A DNA stretch of 64,000 nucleotides, taken from Bugula neritina. Taxonomy: Eukaryota > Animalia > Bryozoa. A program made the translations under genes and the position numbers. Where the stretch lies: contig OZ037772.1 in assembly GCA_964035545.1 (NCBI GenBank), forward strand, positions 2,852,001-2,916,000, in the 5' to 3' direction. This document shows, one piece after another, positions 8,492 to 35,007 of the stretch (the stretch's first letter is position 1; every line of letters begins with the position of its first letter). A model generated the notes under the pieces. That model did no database searches and had not been told where the DNA came from. It worked only from the letters and a program-made list of their open reading frames with translations.

Positions 8492-8673
8492 TGAGTCATT
8501 TTACTTAACTTAATACACAAAGCTATATACCTTTAGCTTTTAGCTATTGTTCACAGTTGAGCTGCTAATTCAACATTTTAATGTAAGAAACTATACACAT
8601 TAGCAGCTAAACTGTGAAAAATAGCTAAGAACCAGAGATATATGGTGTGTACTAAACTAAGTAAAATGACTCA
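8492..8673. mobile_element. Small foldback element or MITE
   Basis: Inverted ends TGAGTCATTTTACTTA / TAAGTAAAATGACTCA, with further internal complementarity (AGCTGCTAAT / ATTAGCAGCT). Confidence 0.55.
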
Positions 8674-11600: not shown

Positions 11601-11849
11601 ATTATGTTCTACATCTCCAACTCATTTTAACTTTGCTGGTTAGTTCATTGTGTATCTGGAGCATAGTTTTGTATTTTCAAGTAGTCCATCAGATACCTTT
11701 GTAGGTAGTAAAGATTAAAATGTTTGTGCAATGATGTCCGTAATGTTGAACTGATTTATTGAAACTAAAACTGTTCTTAATTATAACAAAACTTGACAAT
11801 CTTTACATAAAGAATAATGTCATATAATCTATCTTCATTGTAAACAAAA

Positions 11850-12450: not shown

Positions 12451-13571
12451 AGCCTATAACAAACAGGTGTACCACAGCTAAAAAATATCTAATTCACTGC
12501 ACTAGGATATTATTCAACTCATTTAAATTTAATATATAGCAGTAAAACAATCACATACTTGTATTTATTTTATCAGCTTTACTTTACAAAGCTGAACCAT
12601 ATGAGTTAGTAACTTGTCACCATAATAAACATTGTACAACATACAAATTGAAAACCTGATGTGATTGCTTTTTTAATAGAATATACATTACAAACATGTT
12701 ACTTTGATAAGCGTGTTCATAATAAAAGTATTAAACCAGTTTGAAAAAAATTATTTTGTTATGTAATGGATCACAAAACTACATAATTTTAGACCTGTAG
12801 CTCGATGTTCTTCAAGCAACGGGCTGCTATGACTAATTAATTTTCTATCATTGCATTTGATTGTTCTACTCATAGTGTATTAGCGAGTTGAAATTATTGG
12901 TAATTTAATGTATATTTTAGCTACCTCTGTACAATCAATGTTATAGTAATATCAATTAGGTTTTAAATTTCACTGAGTTTATAGTAAATTATTGCAACTG
13001 TTACATAACATTTGGCTAGTTCTCTAGTTCATTAAATAACCATACGAACTTAAATTTACAACATGACAAAACACACAAAGCAAAATTAAAATAAGCATAT
13101 TATGAACCAATGTAATTGATAAGTGATAATGCTGTTGTAAAACATAAATTATCAAATTTAAATAGTTATTATTACTATTAGTATCACTATCATTATAACA
13201 ACTATAATCATTATTACTATTACTATTAGTATTAGCATTAGTAGTAAAAAATGAGTAGAGTTCAACATATACAATCTAGCGTACTATAAAAGTAGAAGTA
13301 GAACTTCTAAAATTATCATCTGCATCATTAACAGAACTATGAGTAATACTAGTAGTTGTACTAATAGTAATACCAATTATTAATACTAATAAACAATAGT
13401 AATAGTATCGCTATGAGTATGAGACTTGGGCTGGCAGTGATTATCACTATCAGCATCGTCATAGTCAAAAGTTACAAGAATTAGAAGCCATATTCATATT
13501 GATATTCTCATTGAGTTATGCATAGTCATATTCACAGTATTAGTCAATCACTGATTGAGTTAATGTCATAG

Positions 13572-13923
13572 TGTAGTAATTTGTGCAATTACTGAGCGTG
13601 AGTTATTTACTTGCGTATAGTTAGCTGGTTATTCTGTTATCAATTACTAAGGTAGCTGTCGAGTAATTATATTTATTATCCACAATAAAGCATCAACCAA
13701 ACATCACATCAAATTATCCTATACAAGAGTCAACTACTAACACATGTTACTACTACAAGCCTCCGCTTACAACAACGTGATATAATGTTAATAACCCGGG
13801 AAGTGTCACGTGACTCGGAAGCATATCTTCCGGAGCTGCTAATTGGTTGCTACATAAGAGTCTAAGTATTCCAAGAGTAGGGAGAGGGCGATTCCTGTAT
13901 TTGTACTTGCACTACTCACTACA
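13572..13923 (-). repeat. 3' LTR of family A copy 1
   Basis: Direct repeat of 18484-18835; preceded on the minus strand by a polypurine tract. Confidence 0.95.
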
Positions 13924-14214
13924 CCGTCCCCCCCAGCAGAAAGCCCTACTTTCTGATAACACAAAAAAAAAACATAATGAAAAACCATACAATAATCCAA
14001 AAAGGAAAACATATATAAGTAAACCCACAAAGAGTAAGAAAAGAAATAGTTAAACACGACAACGTTTACATTAGAAGACAACAGGGTGATCGATCACACA
14101 CATCTAGTCAGCTATTAAGAGAGAGGGTGCTTACCAGCACGCGGGCCAATGTCGGAGCGCTCGTCACATTCCAAACGAGCTATAGCTCAACGAAGGTGCC
14201 TACCCCAGGCATTC

Positions 14215-15267
14215 TCATTGGTTGGACTCTGCTTCTTGTAGCGACCGTGCTCTGTGTCGAGCCTGTCGGGCACGTAGCCGCCTCTTCAGTCGCCCTACTG
14301 AGTCCTTCAACTGGTATAGACCTGTCGTCGTATCCAGCAAGTCAGGGGCAAGTTGTGTGAACTCGGCTTGCAGTCTTAGAAGCCGCTCTTCTACGTTAGC
14401 CAGCTGGCTAGGCCTTGGTGGGGTTGTAGGGGTCTCCGTTAGACGGGATATGGTTGTTTCTTCTAATTCTGGGGTGTTGCTAGGGTTGACGGGGGTAGGA
14501 GGTGGGCCCTGAACCATAGGGGACTTATGGCGGGCGGATAGTAGCAGTACGTGAAACCCTGACGTTAGTGCGGCCAGGGTGATAGCCTTCCTGATGACTG
14601 GCTTGATGGCATCCAGGTATAGGGGGAAACTGTCTTCATCAACAGTGTGGTTCTCTTCGGCGAAGCAGCTTATCTTATGTACTGTCACGGGATACGGGTA
14701 GACGTCGTGGAACCCGCAGGGACAGAAGTGGAGTAGGAAATGGGCGTCTACATGTAAACGCAGGGAGCGGTGCGACGGGCACTCCTCAAAGCAGACCTGG
14801 CAGGTTCGGTGTGGTCCACTGGGTCCCCAGGCTTCTTCAATTCTCCTCTCTGTCGTGGGTGACACCCAACGGTGTCGTCGGCGGAGTACTACTGGTATGC
14901 CATTCTCCATTACAGGCTCTTCTTCCATAGACAGAGAGGTTGGCTGGTCCCGTGACCGGGAGGTGGTCACTCGAGTGTGATCTGAAAGAGTAGCAGTGTT
15001 AAAGATTATACACTGAGACACCGTCGGCTTGTACAGCCTGACCGGTACTCTGTTCAGTTACACTCGTGAGATTCAGGCTAATGAATAGTTGATGGAGAAC
15101 ACACTCGCTATGACAGATTATTTAAAATCAAAGTCGACGTGTATTCCCACCACTGTTTATCATTATCGAATCTCCAGCTAGCTAGTGTAGCTAAGCTGAC
15201 TGATGCAGTCTAGTTATCGTACCAAAAACATAATTAACTCACCCTTCGATCCAGAATAGTAAGACAT
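14215..15267 (-). CDS. Spliced ORF3: C2H2-type zinc-finger plus coiled-coil protein (263 aa; exons 15267-15243 and 14981-14215)
   Basis: CAAAATG start gives MSYYSGSK, followed by donor AGG/GTGAGT, a 261-bp intron and acceptor TCTTTCAG; the phase-1 join is in frame. The protein has CQVC-x12-H-x3-H, then CPCG...H...C, and a C-terminal heptad-rich segment with a basic tail. Confidence 0.75.
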
Positions 15268-15290
15268 TTTGGAATGAGAGTGGTAAATGA

Positions 15291-17651
15291 TTACTGTTTA
15301 CTGGCACGTCTACTCTCGACTGCATCAACATAGGAAAAGACCGGACAGCGTGGTTGTGAAACATGGCTAGGGCTTTTCACTTCCAGCGGATGAATCTCGT
15401 GTGAGATTCCGCCGAGGCAAAAGTTGAGATTCTCGTGGTGATCACAACTCCCACGGCTCTTTGCCTGTTTTCCCATGCGAGGCTTCTCTAGACTTTTGTT
15501 ACTGCCGCTTATACCGCGGTCACGTACACAGTCTCTGAGACACGCTGGAAGTTGCCTAGTGTGTGGTCCTGGTCCTATGTTGGTATCTCCTTGCGGAGCC
15601 CCTCCCACGGGGGGTTTTTGCACTTCCGGACCTGTTTCTGGTTCCGGAAGTGGTGATGGTGGCAGGCTTGACGTTGGGGGCGGTGAGCGCACTTTCAAGG
15701 ACGGAAGTGGCCTTTCTCGCCTCGCCAAGTCTTCCTGACGTGTCATGGAGGTGTTTCCGGCCAGGTTGACAGTCTCCGCCTGCCGAGACCTTCTTGCACA
15801 ATGCGTCTGCCGCCCCACTTCACCAGGGAGACGGCTATGCTTGTTGGTCTGGCAGACTTTGCACCGTCTCACTCTGCGTCGGATATCCCGTTCCATGTTA
15901 GGCCAGTACCACCGGAGTTGTAGCTTGGTGACCACCCCTTGGACTCCTCCGTGAGTCTCCTCATGGGTGTCTTGTATCAACTTCCGGCGGATGGCAACTG
16001 GGCAGACAACCCTCTTCCTGGCTGGCTGTCTGCTGTTGGCGGCCAAGGTCATGGTTAGCAGACCATCTGGCCTGACCCGCAGAGAGCTCCAACGTTGACA
16101 GTACAGCCGTAACTCGGCGCATCCCTGTCGCCGTTGTGTACTACTGGGTCGTCGCCCCTCCTGTTTCGCTCGGTACACGTCGGCTACCACCCCAGGAAGG
16201 CATTCCTGGAGCTTCGGCAGCTCCCTAACGTTACCAGCCCATACAGGTTTGGCGCGGAGGCTCTGGGCAGCCTCCGGGGGCGTGTCAGCCCTCTGTTGGA
16301 GTGGCTGAGCAGGGGCGGTCTTCGCCGCCCGTGGTACCTCACGGCAGCCTGCTCTATTTAGGCGGGCTCCGTGGTCTGTGTGGCTGAACGCCTCACTGTA
16401 CCCATGTGGCAACCTAGCCATAGCCTGGCGCTTCCCGTTGCCTGTGCAGCCACGCGTCCCTGGAGGAGGGGAGGCGTGGGTTGGGACGGTCCTCCGCCCT
16501 CGAGACGGGCTCTGCTGAGGACCTTCCGTCGTAGCTCCCGACGACGGCCCAATGGCTTCCTCCTGGACAGGATGGAAGCGACCCAGCATGGATCTGGGTG
16601 GTAGGTCTACTGTCTCTGAGAAGGGGTTGACACACTGCACTGAGATCTCTCCTTGCCTCGTGAGCCGGCTAAAACTACGGGCAAGTTGGACTCTCGAGTG
16701 CGTACTTTCGACAACTCCCAACTTAGAGGTTTGGCCACCGTCTACCTTGCAGCGGACGGTAGCCCGGGAGTGGCCTGGTATAGTACAGCTCCGTACTACC
16801 TGCACTGCTCCCGCTAGAGGACGACCAAACTTATCGACACAAGCGAGCTCCTTGTCGCCCATGATTATCGCAGATTTACTGAAATCGATGCGACAACCGT
16901 GTCGTTGTAAGAATGGCATCCCGAGGATAGCATCCTCGTTGAGCTGCCCGACGATAAACGTCTCTTGGATGGCCTGGTTACGGACGTAACCAGTTAGCTC
17001 AATAATGCCGTAGAAGGGAATGCATGACCCGTCTGCCAGGGTGCCATGATCCCCCTCATACGGTGCCAACCCGTCCTTGACCTTAGCGCTGAGGGTGTCA
17101 AAGAACTGACGGCTAAGGAGGTTGGTGGTGCAGCCGGAGTCCAGGAGGAAGTTGGCAGGCTTGCCGGCTAACTTCCCTGGTAGGAAGTAGCTACTTCCGT
17201 GCGGCTGCAATTGAGTGTGCCGTGGTTGCACCTCCCTCGCTGTGGGTCGAGGGGTCCACGGTTGGCGGCGACTATTGACCAGCTGCCGAGGTTGGGGCGG
17301 TACGCCTTGCGGCGCTTGTACCGTTTCCCTCGCAGGCTCTGTGGTCAACCGTCTGCCGGCTCCGTGTTGGTGCCGGAGTGGCGTAGAGGACCCAGGCGGC
17401 GAGTGGCTTGAGCCTACTTGCCGCGGGGGTCGCCACTTCACAGCATCTCCTCGCGGCGCCCAGCGGGGCGACAGACGCGCGGGCCTTCCTGGGTGATTCA
17501 CAGACGGCCCGCAGGAGGTGGGAACATCTGCGGGCCGGGGTAGTTTAACCCTGGTGGGAGCTGAGGGCAGTTTCTCTGGAAATGTCCTGGCCTTCCGCAT
17601 TCCCAGCAGAAGTGGTGCCCCATGCCTGGTGATTGTACCTGCGGCCCGCAA
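15291..17651 (-). CDS. pol: Deleted pol: aspartic protease + spacer + integrase HHCC zinc-binding domain + IN tail
   Basis: FLLDSGCTTNLL (DSG at 17133-17141), AILGMPFL, and HEETHGG...WYWPNM...CKVC. No YxDD, RNase H or DDE motifs. Overlaps the end of gag in the -1 frame, with a candidate slip site G TTA AAC near 17545. Confidence 0.85.
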   Translation of the reverse strand: MRAAGTITRHGAPLLLGMRKARTFPEKLPSAPTRVKLPRPADVPTSCGPSVNHPGRPARLSPRWAPRGDAVKWRPPRQVGSSHSPPGSSTPLRHQHGAGRRLTTEPARETVQAPQGVPPQPRQLVNSRRQPWTPRPTAREVQPRHTQLQPHGSSYFLPGKLAGKPANFLLDSGCTTNLLSRQFFDTLSAKVKDGLAPYEGDHGTLADGSCIPFYGIIELTGYVRNQAIQETFIVGQLNEDAILGMPFLQRHGCRIDFSKSAIIMGDKELACVDKFGRPLAGAVQVVRSCTIPGHSRATVRCKVDGGQTSKLGVVESTHSRVQLARSFSRLTRQGEISVQCVNPFSETVDLPPRSMLGRFHPVQEEAIGPSSGATTEGPQQSPSRGRRTVPTHASPPPGTRGCTGNGKRQAMARLPHGYSEAFSHTDHGARLNRAGCREVPRAAKTAPAQPLQQRADTPPEAAQSLRAKPVWAGNVRELPKLQECLPGVVADVYRAKQEGRRPSSTQRRQGCAELRLYCQRWSSLRVRPDGLLTMTLAANSRQPARKRVVCPVAIRRKLIQDTHEETHGGVQGVVTKLQLRWYWPNMERDIRRRVRRCKVCQTNKHSRLPGEVGRQTHCARRSRQAETVNLAGNTSMTRQEDLARRERPLPSLKVRSPPPTSSLPPSPLPEPETGPEVQKPPVGGAPQGDTNIGPGPHTRQLPACLRDCVRDRGISGSNKSLEKPRMGKQAKSRGSCDHHENLNFCLGGISHEIHPLEVKSPSHVSQPRCPVFSYVDAVESRRASKQ

Positions 17652-18448
17652 GGCTCACGGGCAGTATCTACCTGGCTTGGGGAGGCTAATGTGGTGACCA
17701 GTTTATCTAGCATGTCAGTCATCTGTGAGATTTTTGACGCTAGTGACATCTGGTTCACATTAGCCACCGCGGAGGGTTCCGCATTTAATTCGGTGTGAGC
17801 AGTAGAGTGCTCCGTGGTCACCTGGCGGGAGGCCACGCGGTTGCGGTGCATATGAGTCGCCAAGAGGTAGGCTTCTCCCACCGCAAGTGCATCTTCGACT
17901 GTGGTGACTCTCCTCGCTTGGAGTTGATGGTGGAGCCCCAAGTCGTTGATGGACTGCACGAAGGCATCATAGGTATACCTCTCACGGTGTACCGGAGGCA
18001 GATCGCGGAATGCGATCTGCGCTAATGGGTACACCGTGGCAGCGTGCTCTTCTAGTGACGTGTGAGGATCACGCCGCATCCTCTGTAGACGGGCCCGCGC
18101 ATCTATGGGAGAGATGCCAAAACGGGCCCGCAGGGAAGCAAAGATTCCGTCTATGTCAGGTCCAGCTCCGTACGGCTTAGCTTTGCCCGTCAGCGCCATC
18201 CTGAGCTTTAGCAACGCCACCCTTGGCGGCCATTCTGCAATCTCCATCACATCCTGGAATTCTTGGATGAACTGCTCCACTGCTTCTTCGCCGGTGAAGT
18301 TGGGCGCCTTCAGCCGGTATCTATCTTCACCATGCTCTCTAAGAATTCTCACTTCTTCATCTAACACCACTGGTTCCACAGGTATATCAACATTATCTCT
18401 CTCACCTTCATTCAGTGGAATGGGTAGCTCCGTGCCGTCTTCTGCCAT
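17498..18448 (-). CDS. gag: Gag (capsid plus CCHC nucleocapsid)
   Basis: ATG at 18448; capsid-like APNFTGEEAVEQFIQEF...W...LRMALTGKA; zinc knuckle CWECGRPGHFQRNC. Confidence 0.9.
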   Translation of the reverse strand: MAEDGTELPIPLNEGERDNVDIPVEPVVLDEEVRILREHGEDRYRLKAPNFTGEEAVEQFIQEFQDVMEIAEWPPRVALLKLRMALTGKAKPYGAGPDIDGIFASLRARFGISPIDARARLQRMRRDPHTSLEEHAATVYPLAQIAFRDLPPVHRERYTYDAFVQSINDLGLHHQLQARRVTTVEDALAVGEAYLLATHMHRNRVASRQVTTEHSTAHTELNAEPSAVANVNQMSLASKISQMTDMLDKLVTTLASPSQVDTAREPCGPQVQSPGMGHHFCWECGRPGHFQRNCPQLPPGLNYPGPQMFPPPAGRL

Positions 18449-18464
18449 GACTGCTATACGCAAG

Positions 18465-18482
18465 ATCCCACCGCTGCCACCA
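18465..18482 (-). promoter_or_regulatory. Primer-binding site, tRNA-Leu
   Basis: TGGTGGCAGCGGTGGGAT lies 1 nt after the 5' LTR and is complementary to the metazoan tRNA-Leu(AAG/TAG) 3' end AUCCCACCGCUGCCA-CCA. Confidence 0.85.
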
Positions 18483-18483
18483 C

Positions 18484-18835
18484 TGTAGTAATTTGTGCAA
18501 TTACTGAGCGTGAGTTATTTACTTGCGTATAGTTAGCTGGTTATTCTGTTATCAATTACTAAGGTAGCTGTCGAGTAATTATATTTATTATCCACAATAA
18601 AGCATAAACCAAACATCACATCAAATTATCCTATACAAGAGTCAACTACTAACACATGTTACTACTACAAGCCTCCGCTTACAAGAACGTGATATAATGT
18701 TAATAACCCGGGAAGTGTCACGTGACTCGGAAGCATATCTTCCGGAGCTGCTAATTGGTTGCTACATAAGAGTCTAAGTATTCCAAGAGTAGGGAGAGGG
18801 CGATTCCTGTATTTGTACTTGCACTACTCACTACA
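18484..18835 (-). repeat. 5' LTR of family A copy 1
   Basis: Followed by the PBS and gag; flanked by TSD ATAG. Confidence 0.95.
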
Positions 18836-20817
18836 ATAGTGATACTCATACTCATAATTAATTTATACGATTACGACACTCATAGTGATAGTCATAGTCA
18901 TACTGATACTCATAGTGATACTTCTTCGTGAATTTAATAATAATTTAATATTATTATCATTGTTGCTAATATTATGTCTCACTCTTAGTCTAACAGCAGC
19001 TCTATGAAGAAGTTAAAGATAACTGATAAAACAAATTTAAAAAATAATACTGCAACAATCAATATAATGTATATCAATATGCTAGCAACCTAATTTTCAG
19101 CTCACTTCATTAACTTTCCGTGCAGTATTGTGATAAAATAAATTTATTAATGGTGACCTTGACATCTTCGTCTGAATGCCTTTCACATCAAGCCCCGAAC
19201 CAATTTGTAAAAATTTTGGATTTTTTACTTTTAAATATTTTTTACGAAAAGAGCTTCAAAATAAATTTAAAAAAAAGTGAGCTGTTGTCCACATGAAAGG
19301 AAATATATGAGCCAATTTTCTAAATTCTGGAAGTTACCAGAGGGTCACAATATTTTTTTTTAAAATCTTTATTTTCACGACAAGCTCTATATATAATAAT
19401 ATAGAAAAAAAGAAGACAACTCTTCTTTAAGATTTTTCATTTGCCACGGTCACGTCAATATCAGTGCTATTAACACATATATTTTAATTCATTTTTTCTG
19501 GTATATTGAGTTGAGATTTTTTTTATATATTTTGTGAATGTAACTAAAAAAGTATGATCTTTCAATTAACAGTAATTGATTTTATCAAAATAACCTGGAT
19601 GCCTACGATGTTTAACTTCTCTCTTTGTTTGTGATTGCATCAATCTGTGTACAAAACGTAATCAATTCTAGTATCTCAATTGTTCGTAGAAAGTAAGTCG
19701 TATATTTGTCTCAAAGTTATTAAAAAGTAATTCCTGTGTTGATACCCATCTGATCTTAAAATAGTAATAGTTTTAGATAACATAAAAATCTGACATTTAC
19801 ATTCGCATAACCACAGCTGAGCAGTAGTAGACCATAATATTTTTAGTCTCACTGAACACGTTCCTTTATCATACTCCGACATAATAGTTATAGTAGATAT
19901 TAATATAGAGATTTGAACTATACTACTCAGTTCTACTACCCGATCCAACACCGCGGCTACAAACAAACATCTTAACCTTGGCTTTGCTTTGCGCTACTCC
20001 ACATCAGCACGTCATACATTACATCTAAACAAACATTAAAATAATTGAGTGGGCCTAAGTGACAACTATAACAAAAATTGACTCTTCAATTCTAATGAAA
20101 AATCACGAAATTTTCAGACAAACTATACTGCATTTCAACTTTGTGACTATCACATAATAATAATCATTGTCATTTGAAAGATTCTGCTAAAATCGAAATG
20201 CCAATGTTAATCACAAGGTCAACCATAAATGACTCAGTCTGATGACAATTATGCTTAATGATTAATTAGTAATATGAATAGATTGCAAGTGATCAGCATG
20301 ATGATGGTGATGATTGCTTTTCACCATCAAAGGTCAAACTTTGTAATTGCAGCTTGAAATGTAATATTAAATAATATTACTTTTATTTAATTATACAAGT
20401 ATAACTTACCATCATAACAACATTCAACTTTATGTAGTCATTATGAACATGATAACGGTTTACCTTTTACTTTAGGTGATAATTATACTATTCACGATTA
20501 TCATTATGTCTACCATTATGATTATCTCAACTTTAACTTATCAATTACGATAATTAACCATATGTTTTCAATGATAAAAACTTAAATCATTGAATGAACA
20601 TTAAAAATGATTTAATTTCACACTTTTATTATCATAACTATGAAATTAATATTAATAGGCATATTTGATTTTTAGATTACAATAATAATTATCAAATCAT
20701 GGTATAAAATTAAATATTATAGTTAAAATTACAAATATAATTAATATAATTGTATATATTGAAAGTAAAATAGTAAGGTAAACTAAATGAATTATCGACA
20801 TGAGTATGAGTATGAGT

Positions 20818-21212
20818 AGGCCACAACTAGAAGGTGCAGCAGCAATTTGAGATCCCCGTTTGCAATACCTCATCAGAGATATAGAACAGGTGCAAAATAA
20901 TGCAATCAGATTCATTGCTAAATTGAAAGGCAGAGACAGTATCACTGTGGCACGTGACAAACTAAACCTAGAATCTCTCCCCGACAGACGCTTCAAGCTG
21001 AGGCACAAGTTACTGTTGCGACTTCTATCTAATGAGGGAAATCAGGCATCTCTAACCAACTCCTATGAACTGATGAACAGTAAAACCTAAAATACTAGGT
21101 TTACTAAGGCATCAAGCAGGGACGATCCCCCAACCATTTTTGTAAAATCAGCAGCCTACTACAGCAGCTTCTTTCCAAAAACGGCCCGGGAGCTTAAGTC
21201 TATGCTAAATAA
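20818..21212 (+). mobile_element. 3' fragment of a non-LTR retrotransposon (CR1/L2-group ORF2 C-terminus)
   Basis: RPQLEGAAAI*DP...IEQVQNNAIRFI...SITVARDKLNLESLPDRR and YYSSFFPKTARE match the LINE post-RT thumb motifs RPxLEYAxxVWDP..LExVQRRAAR and SFFPRT. Internal stops are present. Confidence 0.8.
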
Positions 21213-22301
21213 TTAGTCAATACACCAGAGTTGTATATGTGCAACATACTGAAAATACTTGCTAGCCTGTAATCGGCAACTGTAGAGGTGTGCCTCTTGC
21301 TACATGCTCTAATGCGTGTAAGAGGTAAGAGGACTATCAATATTAGTAGGAGTACCCAAGTACCAGTAGACATAGTAGCTGTAGAAAGTCTATCCCAATC
21401 AGTAACTGTAAGCCGTAAGGGCTAAGACTATCACTAGGAATATAAAAAACTATAACTTGAGTATAACTAATTGAAGGTGAGTTAACATAAATTAAAAAAT
21501 AATAAATATAGTTACTACAAAATCAAAATGAAATATGCATTATAAATATTTATATTTTTATTTTATAATAATTTTTAAATTTATTTATATAATTTTATTT
21601 AGGTTCATCACCTTTCATTATGATTAATGAAAGTCATAAATCATATTCATAACGATAATGATAATCACTTAAAAAAATGAAAAGTGATAAACCCATAATC
21701 ATAATGATTATTATTATCATTTATCGCTTATCAGTGATACTCATAATCATAATGATAATCTTGATCATAATCAATATGAATATCAATATAATGTTATACT
21801 TATTCAATAATTATAATTGATCGATTCTTATTCATATTAAATATTAATAATGAATAAAAAATTATATTAACAGTAACACGACAACTTACTTAATTAGAGT
21901 ATTAGTATTAGTATTGTAGTGAGTAGTGCAAAGTACAAATACGGGAATCGCCCCTTCCCTACTCTTGGAATACTTAGCCCTTATGTAGCAACCAATTAGC
22001 AGCTCCGGAAGACATGCTTCCGATTCACGTGACACTTCCCGGGCTATTAACATTATATCACGTTGTTGTAAGCGGAGGCTTGAACTAGTAACATGTGTCA
22101 GTAGTTGACTCTTGTATAGGATAATTTGATGTGATGTTTGTTTTATGCTTTATTGTGGATAATAAATATAATTACTGGACAGCTACCCTAGTAATTACTA
22201 GCAGAATAACCAGCTAACTATACGCAAGTAAATAACTCACGCTCAGTAATTGCACAAATTACTACAGTGGTGGCAGCGGTGGGATCTTGCGTATAGCAGT
22301 C

Positions 22302-23438
22302 ATGGCAGAAGACGGCACGGAGCTACCCATTCCACTGAATGAAGGTGAGAGAGATAACATTGCTATACCTATAGAACCAGAAGTGGCACAGGACCCCCAC
22401 GCCGAACCTGTCTCAACCGATGGCGTCAAGGAGCTAGGACACCTTCAGGAAATTATTCCAGGGGTGGTAGCCGACGTCTATCGAATGAAACGGGAAGGGA
22501 GACGACCCAGTGACAGACAGTGGAAGCTGGGCTGCCCTGAGTGGCAGCTGTACTGCCGAAGTTGGAACGCACTGCAGATCGGGCCGGATGGTCTACTGTC
22601 CATATCCTTGGCCGATAACCACCACCAGCTAGACCAGGAGAGGACCCTCTGTTCTGCCGCCATCCGCCAAGAGTTGATAGAAGAGGTACACCAACAGGCT
22701 CATGGGGGAGCCCAACAGGTGTTCACCGAACTACAACTCTGGTGGTATTGGCCTCACATGGAGCGTGATGTACGACACAGCGTTGGGCAGTGCGGAGTCT
22801 GCCGGGTCAGTAAGCACGGCCCCCCTACTGAGGAGGTAGGGCGGCGAAGGCAAAGTGCAGAAAGACCCGGGCAGACGGAGACTGCTAACCTGGTCGACAA
22901 ACCGCCTAGTATGCAACCCAAAGCAGTGGCGAGGCAGGAAAAGCCACACCCGTTCAGGGAAGTGCGCTCACCGTCGTTAGCGTGCAAGCTGCCACCGCCA
23001 CTCCCTAGGTCAGGAACCGACCTGGAAGTGCAAAAACCCCCCAAGGGAGGGGCTCCGTGCGGAGGTACTGGGAAAGCTCCATTTGTCACAAACTGGCTGA
23101 AGGCACCACCCAAGCGACGTGACCGTCCACGGGTGCGTAAACCGCCTTGGTTAGTGACGACACCTGGGAAACGGTGTTCTAAGCCAGGCCCCGCGTATCG
23201 CAAGGACTTACCACGTTCCGTTAAGGGCGCGGTCAAACGTCCTACGAGACGCCGTGAGGGGAAGGGAGCAGAGCGTGGGAGTTGTGAGCACCACGACAAT
23301 ATTGACTTTTGCCTCGGCGGAATCTCACACGAGATTCGTCCGCTGGAAGTGAAAAGCCCTAGTCACGTTTCACAACCACGCTGTCCGGTCTTTTCCTATG
23401 TTGATGCAGTCGAGAGTAGACGTGCCAGTAAACAGTAA
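22302..23438 (+). CDS. In-frame fusion of the Gag N-terminus (about 28 codons) to the integrase HHCC domain and IN tail
   Basis: Starts MAEDGTELPIPLNEGERDN as in copy-1 gag, then HQQAHGG...WYWPHM...CGVC, and ends PVFSYVDAVESRRASKQ as in copy-1 pol. Confidence 0.75.
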   Translation: MAEDGTELPIPLNEGERDNIAIPIEPEVAQDPHAEPVSTDGVKELGHLQEIIPGVVADVYRMKREGRRPSDRQWKLGCPEWQLYCRSWNALQIGPDGLLSISLADNHHQLDQERTLCSAAIRQELIEEVHQQAHGGAQQVFTELQLWWYWPHMERDVRHSVGQCGVCRVSKHGPPTEEVGRRRQSAERPGQTETANLVDKPPSMQPKAVARQEKPHPFREVRSPSLACKLPPPLPRSGTDLEVQKPPKGGAPCGGTGKAPFVTNWLKAPPKRRDRPRVRKPPWLVTTPGKRCSKPGPAYRKDLPRSVKGAVKRPTRRREGKGAERGSCEHHDNIDFCLGGISHEIRPLEVKSPSHVSQPRCPVFSYVDAVESRRASKQ

Positions 23439-23461
23439 TCATTTACCACTCTCATTCCAAA

Positions 23462-24519
23462 ATGTCTTACTATTCTGGATCGAAGGGTGAGTTAATTATG
23501 TTTTTGGTACGATAACTAGACTGCATCAGTCAGCTTTAGCTACACTAGCTAGCGAGCTGGAGATTCGATAATGATGAACAGTGGTGGGGATACACGTCGA
23601 CTTTGATTTTAAATAATCTGTCATAGCAAGTGTGTTCTCCATCAACTATTCATTAGCCTGAATCTCACGAGTGTAACTGAACAGAGTACCGGTCAGGCTG
23701 TACACGCCGACGGTGCCTCAGTGTATAATCTTTAACACTGCTACTCTTTCAGATCACACTCGAGTGACCACCTCCCGGTCACAGGACCAGCCAACCTCTC
23801 TACCTATGGAAGAAGAGCCTGTAATGGAGAATGGCATACCCGTGGTGCTCCGCCGACGACACCGTTGGGTGTCACCCACGACAGAGAGGAGAATTGAAGA
23901 AGCCTGGGGACCCAGTGGACCACACCGAACCTGCCAGGTCTGCTTTGAAGAGTGCCCGTCACACCGCTCCCTGCGTTTACATGTAGACGCCCATTTCCTG
24001 CTCCACTTCTGTCCCTGCGGGTTCCACGACGTCTACCCGTATCCCGTGACAGTACATAAGCTAAGCTGCTTCGCCGGAGAGAACCACACTGTTGATGAAG
24101 ACAGTTTCCCCCTATACCTGGATGCCATCAAACCAGTCATCAGGAAGGCTATCACCCTGGCCGCGCTAGCGTCAGGGTTTCACGTACTGCTACTATCCGC
24201 CCGCCATAAGTCTCCTATGGTTCAGGGCCCACCTCCTACCCCCGTCAACCCTAGCAACACCCCAGAAGTAGAAGAAACAACAATATCCCCTCTATCGGAG
24301 ACCACTACAACCCCACCAAGGCCTAGCCAGCTGGCTAACGTAGAAGAGTGGCTTGTAAGACTACAAGCCGAGTTCACACAACTTGCCCCTGACCTGCTGG
24401 ATACGACGACAGGTCTATACCAGTTGAAGGACTCAGTAGGGCGACTGAAGAGGCGGCTACGTGCCCGACAGGCTCGACACAGAGCACGGTCGCTACAAGA
24501 ATCAGAATCCAACCAATGA
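23462..24519 (+). CDS. Spliced ORF3: C2H2 zinc-finger plus coiled-coil protein (263 aa; exons 23462-23486 and 23753-24519)
   Basis: ATG at 23462, donor AGG/GTGAGT at 23487, branch-like CTTTAAC, and acceptor CTCTTTCAG ending at 23752. The join is in frame and the structure matches copy 1. Confidence 0.75.
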
Positions 24520-26531
24520 GAATGCCTGGGGTAGGCACCTTCGTTGAGCTATAACTCGTTTGGAATGTGACGAGCGCTCCGACATTGGCCCGCGTGCTGG
24601 TAAGCACCCTCTCTCTTAATAGCTGACTAGATGTGTGTGATCGATCACCCTGTTGTCTTCTATTGTAAATGTTGTCGTGCTCAACTATTTCTTTTCTTAC
24701 TCTTTGTGGGTTTACTTATGTATGTTTTTCTTTTTGGATTATTGTATAGTTTTTCATTATGTGTTTTTTTTATTGTGTTATCAGAAAGTAGGGCTTTCTG
24801 CTGGGGGGGGGGGTCGGTGTAGTGAGTAGTGCAAAGTACAAATACGGGAATCGCCCTCTCCCTACTCTTGGAATACTTAGCCCTTATGTAGCAACCAATT
24901 AGCAGCTCCGGAATATATGCTTCCGATTCACGTGACACTTCCCGGGCTATTAACATTATATCACGTTGTTGTAAGCGGAGGCTTGAAGTAGTAACATGTG
25001 TTAGTAGTTGACTCTTGTATAGGATAATTTGATGTGATGTTTGTTTTATGCTTTATTGTGGATAATAAATATAATTACTGGACAGCTACCCTAGTAATTA
25101 CTGGCAGAATAACCAGCTAACTATACGCAAGTAAATAACTCACGCTCAGTAATTGCACAAATTACTACAGTATTACTAATACTATTAGTATTACTTACAA
25201 CTGTCTTATGCAAGAGAATTAAATCTTTAAAGCGTAGCATCCTTTTCAAGCAAAATAAGGATAATAAGTTTCGTCAAATTGAGTTAAAAACTACAACTTA
25301 TAAGTCACAAGTATAAAGCAACTTATGCTCAGTCATCACTAATCCTAGTGGGTACGGCAAGCATATAGCATAATTTATTTCACAATGCGACAAGATTATC
25401 TAGACGGTGCGATTACGCCTCTCATTGTACTTAAGCAATATCCAATTGTACGGTTCTCATGACTTTAAAATCCGTTTTTGAGAAGCAAGGCTAGATAGAA
25501 GTTAATGATCAATATTGACTCGCTAAGAGTACTCATGTAAACCCGCAAACTACAACTTTTAACTTGACCGCAAAGCTGGAAGTACGATAAGCGTCGCCGT
25601 ATTGATTTCAGGCGAATTTTAGTTGATTTCTTTCAAACTGCTGAGAAGTAATATTTGCTTCCATTTTATGTCTGTATCAGCCATCAGGGCTATCGCGATA
25701 CACTTATAAATGTTCTTAATTCAATCAATATTATGAAATAATTAATGTAGGAAATTCAATTTTGACTATATAGAATAATCTCAATATGAATAAGTATTTT
25801 TTATTTATTGTAACACTTGCACTTCGTCTTACTCTTACTCTTAGTCAGATAACATAGTACATACTCATACTGATAGTTGAAGACCATGCGTTAAAATTAA
25901 CTGTTTCTCTCTTTTCTAAGTTACATTTCAAGTTGCACACTAATAGACACATATGCTTTCAATTTTTTTGATCTATCTTCAAGTTGTGAAACTTGACCAG
26001 TATGACTACGACTAACTGTAACTAGAATAAAATATTGGATGATAGAGAAGTTCCATACCGTTACACCTCCGTTGACTTGTGCTACCGTCGGTAAAACTAA
26101 AAGAGTGGAGCCAAAGAAAAGCATAATCACAGAATTCACAACTTGCTGGTTTGAGATTTTTGTGGTCTAGAGATTGTACTGGGTTACAGGGATCTTTTTC
26201 CCCGTCTGTGAATTTTTGATCCCTGCGGTTGTTTCTGACTGTGGGTAGTTGGAGGTGTTGAGGGAGTGGGCTCACTGGGTAGGCTATATTATTGTAATCA
26301 TATTAACCAATTTGACAGTTTACTAATTCATTGTCTAACTCTGTCTGTCTTAGTCTAGTAACACTATTTATTTATTTATTTACTTATTAATTTAATTAAA
26401 TTACTAGTTTATATTACCAAGTTATATTACTAGTTTATATTACCAAGTTATACTACCAGTTTATATTACCAAGTTATATTACTAGTTTATATTACCAAGT
26501 TATATTACTAGTTTATGTTACCAAGTTATAT

Positions 26532-26861
26532 TGTAGTGAGTAGTGCAAAGTACAAATACGGGAATCGCCCTCTCTCTACTCTTGGAATACTTAGACCCTT
26601 ATGTAGCAACCAATTAGCAGCTCCGGAAGATATGCTTCCGATTCACGTGACACTTCCCGGGTTATTAACAATTTATCACGTTGTTGTAAGCGGAGGCTTG
26701 AAGGAGAAACATGTATTAGTAGTTGACTGATGTATAGGATAATTTGATGTGATGTTTGTTTTATGCTTTATTGTGGATAATAATTATAATTACTAGCAGA
26801 ATAACCAACTAACTATACGCAAGTAGATAACTCACGCACAGTAATCGCACGAATTACTACA
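26532..26861 (+). mobile_element. Solo LTR, family A
   Basis: TGTAGT...ACTACA with TSD ATAT. It is 330 bp long, with a 22-bp deletion between short AATTACT direct repeats relative to the 352-bp LTR. Confidence 0.95.
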
Positions 26862-26998
26862 ATATTACTAGTTTATATTACCAAGTTATACTACCAAGTT
26901 ATATTACTAGTTTATATTACCAAGTTATATTACTAGTTTATATTACCAAGTTATATTACTAATTTATGTTACCAAGTTATATTACTAGTTTATGTTAC

Positions 26999-28409
26999 TG
27001 AAGTAAATTTGTGTCTGACACCAGGTGTCACTATTGACGGTAAGTAATCTCACTTAACAATGAGGGTCGGAATAGAATTCCCTTGTGCGGAAAACTAATT
27101 AAACTATCTAATACTGTTTGTTGCCAAATTATTTGCTAATGTGATTTTAATATTTTCCAGTGACTATTGATTTCTGGTGTTTGGTAACAGTGCTGAAGTG
27201 TGATAGGGACACGGCTATGGTTCGCCGATTTATATCACAGCAACTGTAGTCAGAGACAGTGACAGAAAATCTGATTCCTGATGTTCGAATCGCAGAGACT
27301 CGACAGGAATTCCGCAACGCAAGAGAGTCACTACAGTGGAAAAATGATTTCTGGTGTTCGGTAACAGTGCTGGAGCGTGACAGGGACACGGCTATGGTTC
27401 GCCGATTTATATCACAGCAGCTGTAGTCAGAGACAGTGACAGAAATCAGATTCCTGGGATTTGAATCACCGAGATTCAACAGGAATTGCAGCGCAAGTAA
27501 TCACCATTGACAAACCTATAGAAACTAACTACCACTGTTGCCAACTCAATAGCAACCTAATCAAAGAGCAGAGTATTTCGCAAAGAATAAAATTTATTAT
27601 ATTTATAAGAGTCAATTATAAACATTACAACAGGCAACAGTCGACTGACTGCTACTAAAAATTACAACTCTATTTATATCCATATTACGGACGTCTTGGA
27701 GCACAAAACGGACGTCTTGGGGTACAACCAATTATTTACATACAAAAATTTTATAAAACTCAACAAATTTAATATAAAATTAGCATTACAACTTGTATCA
27801 ACCAATCACAATATATTGTTGTAGATTCGCACAAATATACCATGTCCTTGTTTTATTTTAGAGTTATATTCCCTCGCGCACGTTTCTTTTTTTTGTTATT
27901 ATTATTATATGTAAGCCGAGACTCGTGCGAAGTCGGAGCCCGAAGACGCGATATCGGAGGGGCCTGCCCGAGATCGGGCAGGTCTTCCTCCGATGTCGGT
28001 CGGCGGAACTCCGACGTTCGCACGAGTTTCGGTCCCTCATTAAGTGGCGGGAATTTCCCCCTATATAAGTACGAAGTTTTTCCAAAGCAATTCATTCTTA
28101 TACTGGAGCTCGGAACAGTCAGAAGAAATAAATACTCATATATTCATTTGAATCAAGACTCTTTATTTCTATAACAACAACTGGCATGCAGACTACTAGT
28201 CTATTCTGATAATCCACAAAATCACAACAATATCAAAATTAGTTGACCTAGCTTTGAGTTAGTTAAATTATATTGCCAGAATGATTTAACTTGCAAGTCC
28301 GATAAAAATCACCTTGACCTAGTCTCTATATTCACAATATTGTTATTCAGGGCCGTCAACTTGACGCAACGTGTACTGCTCGATGGCTCTAGTAATATGT
28401 TTTACTACA
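26999..28409 (+). mobile_element. Probable 1411-bp solo LTR of a second family (B)
   Basis: Ends TGAAGTAAA...TTTACTACA (imperfect inverted TG..CA) with 4-bp TSD TTAC interrupting the satellite. Contains TATA (28062-28069), Inr-like TCATTC (28092-28097), AATAAA (28127-28132) and a 177-bp tandem duplication in the putative U3. Confidence 0.7.
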
Positions 28410-28683: not shown

Positions 28684-29370
28684 TGCTATAGATGTATTCA
28701 AGTATTATTTCATACTTGACATTTTGTATGCTATACCACTACAATATAATATACTACAGATATAGCATCCTGCTTCCCTGCAACCTTAGTTAGGGCTTAA
28801 TATTGTTTTGTATTGAATACTTCCATGTATTCTATCTTTTCCCCATTTATAATATCTCTTTTCTTCCATACATAGTGTATGCCTAATATATAGAATAACA
28901 GTAACATTAAATAGACACACACTTACAAGGTTATACACCATGATACAGGACATACAACTAGTTATTGGAGATGGTACAACATTAGCCCTAAAATTATACT
29001 TCCACATATATGATGTTTCGCAACAGGACTTCTAGCCTAAGGATTATAGCACTTCGCTCTTTAGCTATAAGGTACTTATCACTTTCGTACCCTTACCTTT
29101 TATGTTGAGTGACGGAGCTCTGGCTACAAGAAGTAAGCAATGAGAGAACCTTCTGTCTAAACGTGGCAGCTTTGGTACAGGATTCCAGATCTCTTGTACA
29201 CTAGAGTCCGTCGTAAGCAGATGTGACTGAAGAGAAGAATAATACCGGTAAGTGTGATACCAACTATCAACGCGTTATAGTTATACACATGTAGAATATT
29301 CTAATTGTATGCATACCCTGTGTTATATTAGGTACTTAGTAGTTGAAAACCCCCAGTACTCAATATAACA
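28684..29370 (+). repeat. 5' LTR of family C
   Basis: TGCTATA...TATAACA, a direct repeat of 35717-36403. Confidence 0.95.
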
Positions 29371-29373
29371 TTT

Positions 29374-29388
29374 TGGAGGAGGCACTGG
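29374..29388 (+). promoter_or_regulatory. Primer-binding site, possibly tRNA-Cys
   Basis: TGGAGGAGGCACTGG lies 3 nt after the LTR and resembles the complement of the tRNA-Cys 3' end (TGGAGGGGGCAC...) with mismatches. Confidence 0.55.
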
Positions 29389-30489
29389 CTTTTGCCCAAG
29401 GTTGCCCTTGTTAAATATTGTGTCCAGCTTTGAATTAATAGCTCTTGACACTTGGTTAACCACCCCGTGCGCCAGGGGATAAAATTATATTAATACTTTA
29501 GATAGTGTTGATCAGGCCTCATTTGGCTGTTCACTAATATTTTCCTGTAGGTTTTCTATTCGCTGAGCTTATATTTTGCTCGTGGGTAGACCGTAGAAGT
29601 GCTAGGCCGCACTGAGAAAATATTAATTGAAGCCAAAAAGGATCAACTTTTACATATTACCCCAAAACAATATACATCCATAGACTAATAGTAATAGAGC
29701 GAGAATTCCTATATGTTTAATTTTTCTCTGCTGCTTAAAAGGTGAAAACAAGCCAGTTTTAATTTTTTTAGCCTAGAGATAATTAATTGTAGAAGTGAAT
29801 TACCTCCCTTTGCTAATAGGCTAATTTAGTTGTATAATTGGGTGAGCTGCAGATAAGGTTAACACGCTCCTTATTTAGCAGTTAATAAATTCCAAACAGA
29901 TTCAGTCTACGACTGTCTGTTGAGGTATAGGCGCTGACAAGTACTATAATTAATAGTCTTGTCCTAAACATAATTTCTTATAATTATCTACAATTTACTT
30001 TGCAGTGCATTGCCAATCAGAGCATCACTGAATTGTATATTATATATTTACACAGTATATGAATATTACATTGCAGTACTAAGTATTGCAACACCTGCAG
30101 TGCAGTCAGAGTATTATAGTACAAAGCATTGTCCTATTACGTATTATAGTACCTAAGTACAACAACCGCCTTACTACATAGTACGAATATCAAACTAATT
30201 AATTACTGTGGTTGACTAAATTTAGAGTTTAGACTAGGCTTGAATAGCAGAAATAACTGAATAATTTGTAGTGTACAGAGGTCATAATAAAAGACTTCCA
30301 CTAACTTAAAGTATTTAACTGCAAGCCACACCTTGTCATATATACAGGATAGTACATGCACACATATCGTTGAGTAAGAAATAGACACATAATTGTACAT
30401 TAGCACAAAGTATAAACATTAATAACATTGCAAACAAGTACTGCTGAACTCACTTATTAATTGAGAATTATAAGTCACGCACCAACAAT

Positions 30490-33400
30490 ATGAGTACCGG
30501 AATCGTGACCACCGCCACAACTACAGTCACCACTAGTGTTAGTACTATTGCGACACCAGGTAGTGCCACAAATGTAGCCACGGGCTTAGACACTCCTACT
30601 CTCTCACAAGACTCGACAAGAGAAGGAGCTCACGCATTGGTTGAGTTGTCCGCAAGACGACTCCCAATGAACCCGCATGAAATTGCAAGGTTCTACGAGT
30701 TAGAATACAAGAAACTTGTAGAGGAGCAGGAAAAGCAAAAGGATGTATGGAGATATGAGCAAGAACAATGGCGACAGTATCAACAAACGAAAGAGCATGA
30801 ACTGGCGGAACAGTTTCAGCGCCTCGAGGTAGAAAGACAAGAGCAAGCAAGAAGACGGTACGAGATGGAGGAACGTTTTGAAATCCAACGGAGAAAGTTC
30901 TATGAGGAACAGAGCGCTGTTCAAGAACAACAGCAAAATGAGTTCCTGGAAAAAGAGCATCGGCTCACAATCCAGCAACAAAAGTTACAACAACAACTTG
31001 AAGATTTTCGGAATTTCACCTTGGGTCAAAGATCTACCAATGATGCAAATGTCATGCCGGAACCAACTCCGCCACCTCGAACTCGCCTACCTCCACCAGT
31101 TACGCCACGAAAAACAAGTAGAAGACAACTTCATGAACAACCAGCACCTACAAATACTACCTTGGAATTCACATCAAGTTATCCCCACATTGCTAATCAA
31201 CGATCACCAAAACCTCATAACTCACCAATTCAAAGCTTAGCTGAAACACCATCTGAACCCAGCATTGGAGTAGCTGATGCGGGAAAATTTCACAACTCAC
31301 CTATTATTCTGAGAGAGCCTCCACAGAACATCAAATTTAAAGGAACTCCTGGTTCCAGCTGGGAGTTATTTCTTGAAAAATGGGAAAAGAACATAAAAAA
31401 ACTGCAGCTTAGTGATTATCAGATGGCACAAAACCTTCCATATGCCCTGGAAGGTGGTGCCTATCAGGTTTTCAAGGCAGTAGTTGCAAAGGAGCCCACG
31501 CTAGCGATTAGTTACAAAAGTCTTCGAGAGAGGTTATGCAAAGAGTTTGTCGACTCAAGCAAATTAGTGTGGAACATAAAGATGAGGAAGAAAAGCGTAT
31601 TAGAATATTATGGCGAATTTATGGAAGCTGCCAACACCCAATGGCCTGACCTCTCCCTTGAACATAAAGATAGCGAACTAGTATCTGCTTTTATTACTGG
31701 TCTACGACCAGGATTGAAGAGGCACATCCTCTCTAAAAACCCCACAACTGTAGAAAGTGCTAGGAAACTTGCACTTAAGCAAGAAAATGTAGAACATCAG
31801 ATGGGAGATGACACCCAGAGAATAGTGGCAACGGTAAACTCATCGGACTCAGTTCAAAAGCTAGAAAAAGAGGTAGAATGGTTGAAAACTTTAGTGCACA
31901 ACCAAGCTAAAGAGCAACGGCAGCCCCAATACCAACAGCACCAACAACAGAGTCAAGGGTTTGGAATGAGAAATGACAGAGGTAGAGGTGGTGGATGGAG
32001 AGGAACAACAAACCGAGGAAGAGGACGAGGTAGATACTTCAACCAGGGGAAGCCTCAACCCTACTACCAATCTTCTCCCCGGTACCCTCATCCACCAGCA
32101 CAACTTCCTTCCTGCCCACCTCAACCACCCTCTCACCAGCAACCACAACGTAATCAGTGCTCTGGTCAACAGAGAAAAACCAAAGATTACAGTGGGACGC
32201 GACACATCAATGCTATTGAGAGCCTGGAAGGTGATGAATTTGCCGAGGCCCTTCTGACTCAGCCTCCTCAAGATGAGATAGCTGAGGAATCAGTGAATTC
32301 AATTCAAACCTCCCCAAATGAATTCATCTCTGACAGAAAACCCAAAAGAAAAAGAAGCAGAGGACGGGGGACTGGTTTGTCAACAATGCAAACCTACATG
32401 TTGGCACTAGTGGCAATGTGTATGCTAATCAGTGTAGCCGCAGCCACTGCACCAGTAAAAGGCACAGCTCTCCTGGGGCCAGCTTTGGCCAGTCAGACTC
32501 TCACCAGCATACTATCTGTGTTAGTGTTGACAGCAGTAGTGAATGCATTGTCTAACACGACTGTTTTTAACACTACACAGAAGGCACAGCCGCAGTATGC
32601 CAGGTATCCTTTGGTGTGTAGTTCCAGTGAAGTGAGGCGACCATCTATTCATCAATTGAATCATGACTTCCAATGTGATCCGACTCCAAGACCCAATAGT
32701 ACTCATGCGCCAACCCCTGTGAAGGCTACGGTTTACAGAAAAAATGTAGTGGAATGGCGTACAGCAGCCTATCAATGCACTAAAATGCTGTACACCATCT
32801 CCACACAGATATCACTTTTTACGGACGTGAAAACTAAGAAGGAATCTCACCGGTCACTGCCAGTTAGCCGCAGCGAATGCGAAAATATGGTACTAGAGAA
32901 GAGATGCAATGAAGGTGCCCTATCTGGAAGTGATGGTGCATACACTACAAAAAACAAAGCTGTAGGATTAGCTTATGTTTGGTGCTGCAAGTGGCATCAC
33001 TTTGAAGTGAAACAATGCAGTTATATTTCAGCTTCGGTATACAAGACATTTGGGAAAAGTTCTTTTGAAAGCACCGCAGGTGACGTTTCCCATTGCAACT
33101 CATACTCTGATGGCTACTGCAAACTCAGAGATCAATCTATGCTAATATGGGAAACAGAACGAGAAGCTAATTGTCCATACGAGGAGTGGTATGAAGTTGA
33201 AGGAAGTTTCCTTGATGGCTATTTTGTTAGTGATCAAGGAGACTTGGCTTTAACTTTCCGCAAGAACCCCTTTGAGAATATTACCACTTGTGACGGCAAG
33301 TCAGGCACAATGTCGGACCAAGGTTTGCTTGTTGTTTTTAATACTTCAGACCTGTTCAACACCACTCTAACGCAACACGTTGAAAAAGCTCCTGGACTAG

Positions 33401-34497: not shown

Positions 34498-35007
34498 CTA
34501 GAAGCCGACACACCCAGTACTAGTAGCCGCATTGAAATAGTAGCAGGAATAAATGGTAGTCAATGTAGGAGTGCGTTAATTGATGTCAAAATAGCAGGAA
34601 AACCGTATCAAGCATTAGCTGATGCCGGGGCTACGGTGACATTGATGCGCTCTGACATTGCTAAAAGATTGAGTCTACCATTATATTCAGGTACCTTGAC
34701 TGCAAAAGGGGTTAACAGCTCTAAACTTCATATAATAGGACGCACGGCCGCTGAGATTACAATTGGATCGAAAGTGTTTAAGCAGTGTTTTCATGTAGCT
34801 GATGATATTGGCCATGAGGTACTGCTTGGAACTGATTTTCTTAGCAAACTGGGTGATGTCACCTACAATTTTGCAAAAGGAGAGTTTCGTTTCTCTGGCG
34901 AAACTTTACCCATGGGAGAAACCAACGCACTAACTACTTTTAAAATAAGAACTGTGAATGCAGTACACATACCACCATATTCTCACCCGATTCATTACTC
35001 TACATAA
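34498..35007 (+). CDS. pro: Retropepsin-like aspartic protease, in frame behind the gag-env TGA (predicted readthrough extension); pol truncated after it
   Basis: 169 sense codons in the same frame, with VKIAGKPYQALADAGATVTLM and VLLGTDFL. The catalytic triad reads DAG instead of D(T/S)G. There is no ATG before the active site. Confidence 0.85.
   Translation, partial: LEADTPSTSSRIEIVAGINGSQCRSALIDVKIAGKPYQALADAGATVTLMRSDIAKRLSLPLYSGTLTAKGVNSSKLHIIGRTAAEITIGSKVFKQCFHVADDIGHEVLLGTDFLSKLGDVTYNFAKGEFRFSGETLPMGETNALTTFKIRTVNAVHIPPYSHPIHYST

Follow-up and report, generated by a model that had tools for sequence, protein, structure and literature searches.

Non-envelope third open reading frames (ORFs) located after pol are already known from LTR retrotransposons of rotifers, plants, insects and an ostracod. 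HIV Tat and foamy-virus Tas are small regulators made from spliced messages, with Tas being the model for a promoter transactivator, and the env of errantiviruses is made by a subgenomic splice from the 5′ end. In the portions of the cited papers on which we draw, expression of the bdelloid rotifer ORF3s typically proceeds through spliced messages, one non-autonomous family retains its ORF3, and the products are fusion, transmembrane or coiled-coil proteins, GDSL esterases or DEDDy nucleases; the term 'zinc finger' does not occur in the main text of that paper (PMC5408684). Additional ORFs of plant elements (e.g. Grande gene23) have been proposed to play a nuclear regulatory role by analogy with Tat and Rev, the nuclear ones being antisense with a promoter of their own and the sense ones having transmembrane segments (PMC7264820). 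Insect LTR elements have been described with membrane fusogens and a short upstream ORF (PMC11952523), and an ostracod element with a coiled-coil extension of pol (PMC7998251).

How unspliced RNA is exported from LTR elements with strong splice sites is understood for few animal elements, and CERV of the Caenorhabditis elegans element Cer1 is the one characterized retrotransposon-encoded export factor found in our literature search. According to the available sections of its description, CERV is required for genomic-RNA export; it is a product other than env, translated from spliced RNA of an animal Ty3/gypsy element, combines a Gag-shared N-terminus with a Cys-rich finger, a leucine zipper and a candidate nuclear signal, and has homologues that are reported absent outside nematodes (PMC10309623).

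Here, we analyzed a 64,000-nt stretch of DNA from the bryozoan Bugula neritina (referred to as the window), in which two LTR elements carry a small spliced accessory gene (Table 1). Its product resembles CERV in these structural respects, possibly including the Gag-shared N-terminus, which one relative (P0012) suggests. In contrast, CERV measures 517 residues, is encoded by five exons in the gag region and bears a C4-type loop and a G-protein-like domain (PMC10309623), whereas the accessory protein has 263 residues, follows pol and contains a C2H2 and a C2HC finger, which sets the two apart by description. With HIV Rev it shares small size, a spliced message, an Arg-rich segment and likely multimerization (as far as covered in PMC10309623 and PMC7264820); Rev, Tat and Tas belong to another element class, and the likeness proposed here concerns function rather than sequence or fold. 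Its location matches that of the rotifer ORF3s, which lie after pol in invertebrate LTR elements (PMC5408684), of the plant ORFs between pol and the 3′ LTR (PMC7264820), and of errantiviral env after pol (PMC13524379), from which it differs in being far shorter, lacking a signal peptide or anchor and being no fusogen. The consulted part of a paper on env-bearing elements mentions neither 'zinc finger' nor 'C2H2' (PMC13524379). Being sense to gag-pol, the gene falls outside the antisense-ORF class (Grande, Boty type), and it likewise corresponds to no env, sORF2, CERV layout or classical tandem C2H2 protein. Our literature search, which covered main texts and had most subscription papers and Repbase outside its scope, found no account of this family. 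Tentatively, we favor a role of the protein in RNA export akin to that of HIV Rev or nematode CERV, and rank this ahead of an LTR transactivator, which is a serious if somewhat less probable candidate.

Gene layout and carrier elements

The layout proposed in a first-pass annotation holds in the sequence: 23 nt past the upstream stop (23436–23438), a mini-exon beginning with its ATG at 23462 leads, via a phase-1 donor (GT 23487) and an AG at 23751–23752, across a canonical intron, and joining the 25-nt exon to the main exon leaves 263 codons open. Copy 1 has the matching structure with a 261-nt intron, and in both copies the gene is on the sense strand and encodes 263 amino acids. Exon 2 additionally contains in-frame ATGs of its own at codons 27 and 33. 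As annotated, the product has no signal peptide or membrane anchor and is therefore not an env; sORF2/FAST and other fusogens were rejected for the same reason. The highest 19-residue hydropathy (1.56) occurs at residues 140–158, which are modeled as two short helices within the soluble domain and are not hydrophobic in distant relatives. The accessory gene is almost certainly real and functional, and the data support it as a spliced, element-encoded, non-env gene under purifying selection.

Table 1. Features of the two carrier elements and a related solo LTR, in positions of the window.
Feature	Position	Strand	Remarks
Copy 2, Ty3/gypsy LTR element	21915..25169	+	Non-autonomous; LTRs 98% identical; 4-bp target duplication GTAT
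Copy 2 5′ LTR	21915..22266	+	352 bp; followed by primer-binding site
Copy 2 Gag leader	22302..22344	+	14 codons + 1 nt; ends at consensus phase-1 donor (GT 22345)
Copy 2 single open frame	22302..23438	+	Gag N-terminus fused to RNase H–integrase connection, integrase HHCC finger and tail; without protease, RT, RNase H and integrase core
Conserved pol tail and 23-nt spacer	23270..23461	+	Common to both element types
Mini-exon	23462..23486	+	Own ATG; 8 codons + 1 nt; phase-1 donor
Intron	23487..23752	+	GT..AG, 266 nt; conserved, predicted structured; 3′ end with pyrimidine tract and AG
Main exon (exon 2)	23753..24519	+	Acidic N-terminal stretch, two-finger domain, Pro/Thr linker, heptad helix, Arg-rich tail
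Copy 2 3′ LTR	24818..25169	+	352 bp; preceded by G-rich polypurine tract
Copy 1, LTR element	13572..18835	-	Non-autonomous; LTRs 99.4% identical; target duplication CTAT
Copy 1 Gag leader	starts 18448	-	Same features as in copy 2
Copy 1 gag	18448-17498	-	
Copy 1 open pol frame	17654-15291	-	Protease, connection, HHCC finger; without RT, RNase H and integrase core
Copy 1 accessory gene	14215..15267	-	Exon 15267-15243, intron 15242-14982, exon 14981-14215
Solo LTR	26532..26861	+	Same family, 87% identical; target duplication ATAT

Both carriers are young and non-autonomous and bear the hallmarks of Ty3/gypsy elements, i.e. LTRs with TG..CA ends, a primer-binding site (in copy 2 presumably for tRNA-Leu), a polypurine tract and a short target duplication; the annotated LTR size of 352 bp is correct. 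The gene had been described as kept even when gag and pol are lost, which holds for RT, RNase H and the integrase core, but not for gag, which is intact in copy 1. The complete protease–RT–RNase H–integrase order is found in relatives P0142 and P0163 (62–63% identity) and P0162 (33–35%). From 23270 to the end, the two copies are 96% alike, compared to ~70% over the shared upstream pol, a split suggesting that the 3′ cassette was exchanged between element types. Cis-required sequences in the swapped segment may partly explain why the gene is retained without gag or pol.

The RT-less and RNase-H-less pol frame of copy 1 is open over 460–790 codons in P0131, P0133, P0135 and P0141; as these are only 52–59% identical, the non-autonomous protease–HHCC layout looks old and maintained. 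In copy 2, a perfect 11-nt inverted repeat pairs the 5′ LTR end (22218–22228) with leader sequence immediately beyond the primer site (22286–22296) and possibly forms a U5–leader stem.

The insertions at 13572, 21915 and 26532 all show N-TAT duplications in AT-rich repeats, and the flanks listed for run X1 (see below) are AT-rich too, likely reflecting a target preference. The accessory protein could in principle be a particle or integration factor that, for example, tethers integration to AT-rich sites, as three of three insertions in the window are of this kind and finger 1 is similar to fingers of SALL proteins, which recognize AT-rich DNA. We deem this very unlikely, as integrase normally sets target choice, a protein made from its own spliced message would have to enter the particle, and three sites are few.

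Selection and the protein family

The first-pass count by eye of 14 synonymous and 12 non-synonymous differences between the two copies proved exact, and none of the Cys and His residues of the product differ. Set against 206.5 synonymous and 582.5 non-synonymous sites, the counts yield a pN/pS of 0.30 (Fisher p = 0.002), or of 0.35–0.41 at a transition bias of 2–6 (p = 0.006–0.02). Non-coding divergence amounted to 1.9% in the intron, 3.4% in the 3′ UTR and 4.0–4.8% in the LTRs. While synonymous sites diverged more than the pooled non-coding sites (p = 0.024), non-synonymous divergence (2.1%) was not significantly below the latter (29/926; p = 0.26), leaving the two-copy data ambiguous when taken alone.

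Run X1, which is possibly the window's own source, contributed 36 single-base variants (well-supported ones only, each read singly against the window codon). Thirty-five of them fall in exon 2 and 15 coincide with copy-1 differences. The 20 further variants comprise 15 synonymous and five non-synonymous changes (p = 8e-6 to 1e-4), and the 46 distinct variants pooled comprise 29 and 17, respectively (p = 2e-7 to 2e-5). With these additions, the purifying selection claimed from first inspection is settled. The synonymous to non-synonymous ratio was 12:3 in the finger domain and 3:6 in the linker. Conservation due to another reading frame was rejected, given the synonymous excess in this frame and third-position location of 20 of the 35 X1 variants.

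A neutral cargo or captured host gene, hitch-hiking on cis-required sequences, would fit the lack of a significant non-synonymous deficit relative to non-coding sequence between the copies, the exchange of 3′ halves between element types, and the annotation of the only named relatives as bryozoan genes. It is largely refuted, and in our view highly improbable, in light of the 29:17 ratio over all variants, the disparity between domain and linker, and the retention of the zinc ligands across the family.

The first-pass annotation had recognized a C2H2-like finger and a second Cys/His cluster. The former meets the spacing C-x2-C-x12-H-x3-H (C69, C72, H85 and H89 in spliced numbering); the latter is actually a full finger, C-x-C-x12-H-x3-C (C95, C97, H110 and C114), which ends in Cys and is reached without a classical linker. 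All eight ligands are kept at 91–100% across 55–57 relatives, in a set of 57 chosen for domain cover (17 close, 40 distant). Structure prediction returned a 136-residue two-finger domain at pLDDT 94 and pTM 0.87, with both fingers packed into one globular unit; an earlier model built from close relatives alone was poor (pLDDT 57).

Relatives numbered 128 of 1,687 candidates, the 120 listed spanning 50–96% identity, and a full scan gave 88 representatives with identities down to 25–36%. In 39 near-full-length close relatives chosen from those 120, conservation (as major-state frequency) was highest in the Arg-rich tail (0.91) and the heptad helix (0.88), followed by the fingers (0.80–0.83) and the linker (0.51). 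A C-terminal coiled coil was scored in 14 of 20 long distant relatives, which were picked by eye and assessed with a home-made heptad score. Judged from these comparisons, the accessory protein founds a wider family defined by eight zinc ligands, the modeled domain and, usually, a C-terminal coiled coil. Among 30 proteins looked up, the only named relatives were XP_067940964.1 and XP_067944745.1 of the bryozoan Watersipora subatra, which possess the same two-finger domain at 31–33% identity but are longer than the accessory protein; the former carries two domain copies plus a C-terminal heptad segment. Cluster look-ups returned unnamed clusters and generic C2H2 clusters. A family listed as uncharacterized in genome annotations gains a description here.

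Pfam assigned no family to the window protein at E-values up to 1, and its zf-C2H2 models weakly matched single distant members. None of 151 pattern matches in metagenome contigs and none of 37 in viral contigs were confirmed as relatives of the locus, a degenerate pattern had no metagenome matches, and a weak search among 4,434 candidates revealed no longer fused forms of the protein.

A profile search against solved structures ranked the C2H2 transcription factors HIC2 (E = 8e-7) and SALL3 (E = 3e-6) highest, and model residues 37–88 overlay the tandem fingers of SALL4, Kaiso and CTCF over 51–59 residues at an rmsd of 3.0–3.6 Å, with Z-scores (3.2–3.8) in the range of common arrangements. 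A fold search with the domain model gave nothing at E ≤0.001 in PDB and viral libraries (best: Kaiso, E = 0.53), and a fold comparison over 48,161 chains nothing at Z ≥5, which is no proof of a new fold. In finger 2, the helix positions that we take to be +1, +2 and +6 are occupied by Arg, Asp and Arg/Lys in 30, 30 and 28 of the 40 distant relatives, respectively. The 17 close relatives, which group together on a well-supported branch, all have Pro-Tyr-Pro in place of Arg-Asp, so that this subfamily has lost the usual base-reading surface of finger 2.

These features bear on two alternatives. A DNA-binding dimeric transactivator of the element promoter, be it in the LTR or internal to the conserved 190 nt before the mini-exon, is a possibility that we take seriously: finger 1 has canonical spacing, profile and overlays point to tandem-finger transcription factors, distant relatives keep the base-reading residues of finger 2, activation could come from the acidic stretch at the N-terminus and from the Pro/Thr linker, and a mini-exon with an ATG of its own would suit an internal promoter. 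It is weakened by the loss of those residues in all close relatives, the packing of both fingers into one domain without a classical linker, overlay scores typical of common arrangements, LTR repeats that are merely two-copy and 8–12 nt long, and the failure to find a TATA-like motif when one was looked for in the element. Alternatively, the protein might antagonize host silencing (piRNA, chromatin or nonsense-mediated decay factors) through its finger 2 surface and coiled coil. In this subfamily, finger 2 bears a hydrophobic Tyr/Pro patch that is invariant and resembles a protein-contact surface, and the shift from the distant finger 2 form might signify retargeting; nevertheless, the domain is under strong purifying rather than diversifying selection (12 synonymous vs. 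three non-synonymous variants) and harbors no enzyme or known silencing-factor motif among those found, making this alternative unlikely.

Splicing, RNA structure and a candidate export function

The junction 23486–23753, suggested at the outset as a transcript signature, does occur: one X1 contig omits exactly the 266 nt of the intron with GT..AG ends (one of 15 joints; one of six in a second listing). This contig is 117 nt long, matched the window at 85–90% likeness and has 28 nt on its short side, placing it in the less safe class of joints below 30 nt. A chance deletion was ruled out by the exact GT..AG ends, with 1 nt of microhomology. X1 would appear to be DNA, given its LTR-flank joints, intron cover and longest contig of 59 kb. 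If so, the contig represents intron-less copies reverse-transcribed from spliced RNA; if X1 is RNA, it represents spliced transcripts. Whichever applies, the predicted mini-exon splice sites are in use, and intron-less element copies probably exist. The intron-less form, whose common occurrence had been named as speaking against the gene, is thus present, but in the minority: depth was 843 for the skipping contig, 8,600–16,800 in well-covered intron bins and 50–145 at flank joints, values that are not equivalent to copy number. X1 also has a cover gap at ~23673–23789 that may stem from filtering. The earlier argument that survival of the intron implies regulated splicing is overstated, since incomplete splicing suffices, as in spliced-env elements.

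A second message likely joins the Gag leader to the exon-2 acceptor, similar to the subgenomic RNA of env. Relative P0012 starts with 14 residues matching the Gag start of the window at 12 positions and then continues straight into exon 2, and both copies have a consensus phase-1 donor 43 nt after the gag ATG, one of only three consensus donors of that type in the 3,255-nt element; together, join and donor suggest that the gene is also made from subgenomic RNA. The join was seen in this one of 256 proteins, read as protein alone, and is absent from the joints listed for X1. Scanning the 256 stored proteins for the exon start, we found Ser or Leu to precede it in 34 of 36 pattern matches (many of them kin, the 35th being P0012 and the 36th spurious), as expected from a pyrimidine-AG acceptor, which requires such codons; the exon-2 acceptor is thus old. 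Intron and mini-exon DNA are also conserved in diverged elements, as intron-derived pseudo-protein in the read-through products P0002 and P0007 is 46–64% identical, with frame shifts, and P0131, with a pol of 59% identity, still ends in the mini-exon region.

Further candidate splice sites were noticed along the element. The third consensus donor is located in the 3′ UTR; downstream of it, a very T-rich stretch runs up to a CAG just ahead of the polypurine tract, making 24599–24785 (+) a possible 3′ UTR intron; none of the joints listed for X1 correspond to it. Within 23394–23438 (+), an acceptor-like AG (23409–23410) was spotted by eye, below the pyrimidine cut-off used for acceptors. A splice from the Gag leader to this site would keep the frame through the nine final pol-tail codons and give a short upstream ORF; with its stop 23 nt ahead of the ATG of the mini-exon, such an arrangement could permit re-initiation. 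In P0093, pol-tail sequence continues in the same frame into the accessory protein, beginning at finger 2; a deletion probably gave rise to this form.

A 371-nt segment spanning the end of pol, the mini-exon and the intron, with limits picked after viewing a scan, is predicted to fold with z = −7.2 on the sense strand, −4.9 on the other strand and −8.6 in copy 1, with 0 of 100 shuffles as good. In this prediction, the mini-exon donor pairs with the 23-nt spacer that precedes the ATG, and the acceptor bases are likewise paired. Tiling copy 1 with 371-nt segments from 18280 down to 14950 gave z-values of −2.1 to −8.8 for 17 of 18 segments (including 14765–15135, which overlaps exon 2). The lowest value lies over the mini-exon and intron, but is not unique as gag-pol segments reach −7.2. 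Six segments further 3′ had z-values of −0.9 to +1.6. Exon 2, the 3′ UTR and the LTRs lack predicted structure, and in copy 1 such structure is confined to the part that a splice from the Gag leader would take out. For copy 2, z is near zero in most gag-pol segments. Out of eight variants at predicted paired bases, five keep the pair, three break it and none are doubly compensatory; Rfam detected no family within 13500–27000.

We infer that the protein is nuclear, oligomeric and binds element nucleic acid. Under the Rev- or CERV-like reading, the regulator would be translated first, from spliced element RNA, with two messages (the mini-exon splice and the Gag-leader splice) feeding the exon-2 acceptor. 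The coiled coil is predicted to mediate oligomerization, and the Arg-rich tail to serve both nuclear entry and RNA contact. The protein would then bind unspliced element RNA in the nucleus, at a predicted structured target, and allow it to leave the nucleus without being spliced, to serve Gag-Pol synthesis and packaging. The predicted stem between the mini-exon donor and the upstream spacer would account for an intron kept in most genomic RNA.

Five observations led us to rank this role first: the strong splice sites in a genomic RNA that must leave unspliced; the precedent of CERV, a spliced product on which export depends and which combines a Gag-shared N-terminus with a Cys finger and a zipper; the Arg-rich helix as the most conserved part; the confinement of predicted structure to the unspliced part in copy 1; and a finger 2 without base-reading residues. 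Against it stand the resemblance of profile and modeled fold to DNA-binding tandem C2H2 fingers, the restriction of export-signal-like patterns to the folded domain with none in the tail, and a low folding energy that is not special to the intron and comes without compensatory variants. The accessory gene constitutes a second candidate export factor, distinct from CERV in layout, small and residing in young, intact copies. The confidently modeled domain and the two defined junctions make export and transactivation distinguishable by reporters. More speculatively, and in our estimation rather unlikely as a whole, the elements could represent a widespread, undescribed invertebrate lineage of 'complex' gypsy elements with a Rev-like switch of their own, comprising two spliced messages, a donor-hiding stem, export licensing, and a domain domesticated by bryozoan hosts as two-copy genes.

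A further LTR element with 687-bp LTRs (99% identical) and ATAT-type flanks occupies 28684–36403 (+), inserted in the minisatellite that also contains the solo LTR. Its single frame of 1,349 codons encodes a Gag domain and, after it, an envelope-like part; beyond the stop, a protease follows in frame, whereas RT was not seen in this element. By eye, the envelope-like part displays a hydrophobic leader, a Cys-rich ectodomain, a basic cleavage-like site and a C-terminal membrane segment, and it has no Pfam or PDB sequence match. This Gag-Env-Pol order has been reported for Bryozoa, Nematoda and Platyhelminthes in the part of the source drawn on here (PMC13524379).
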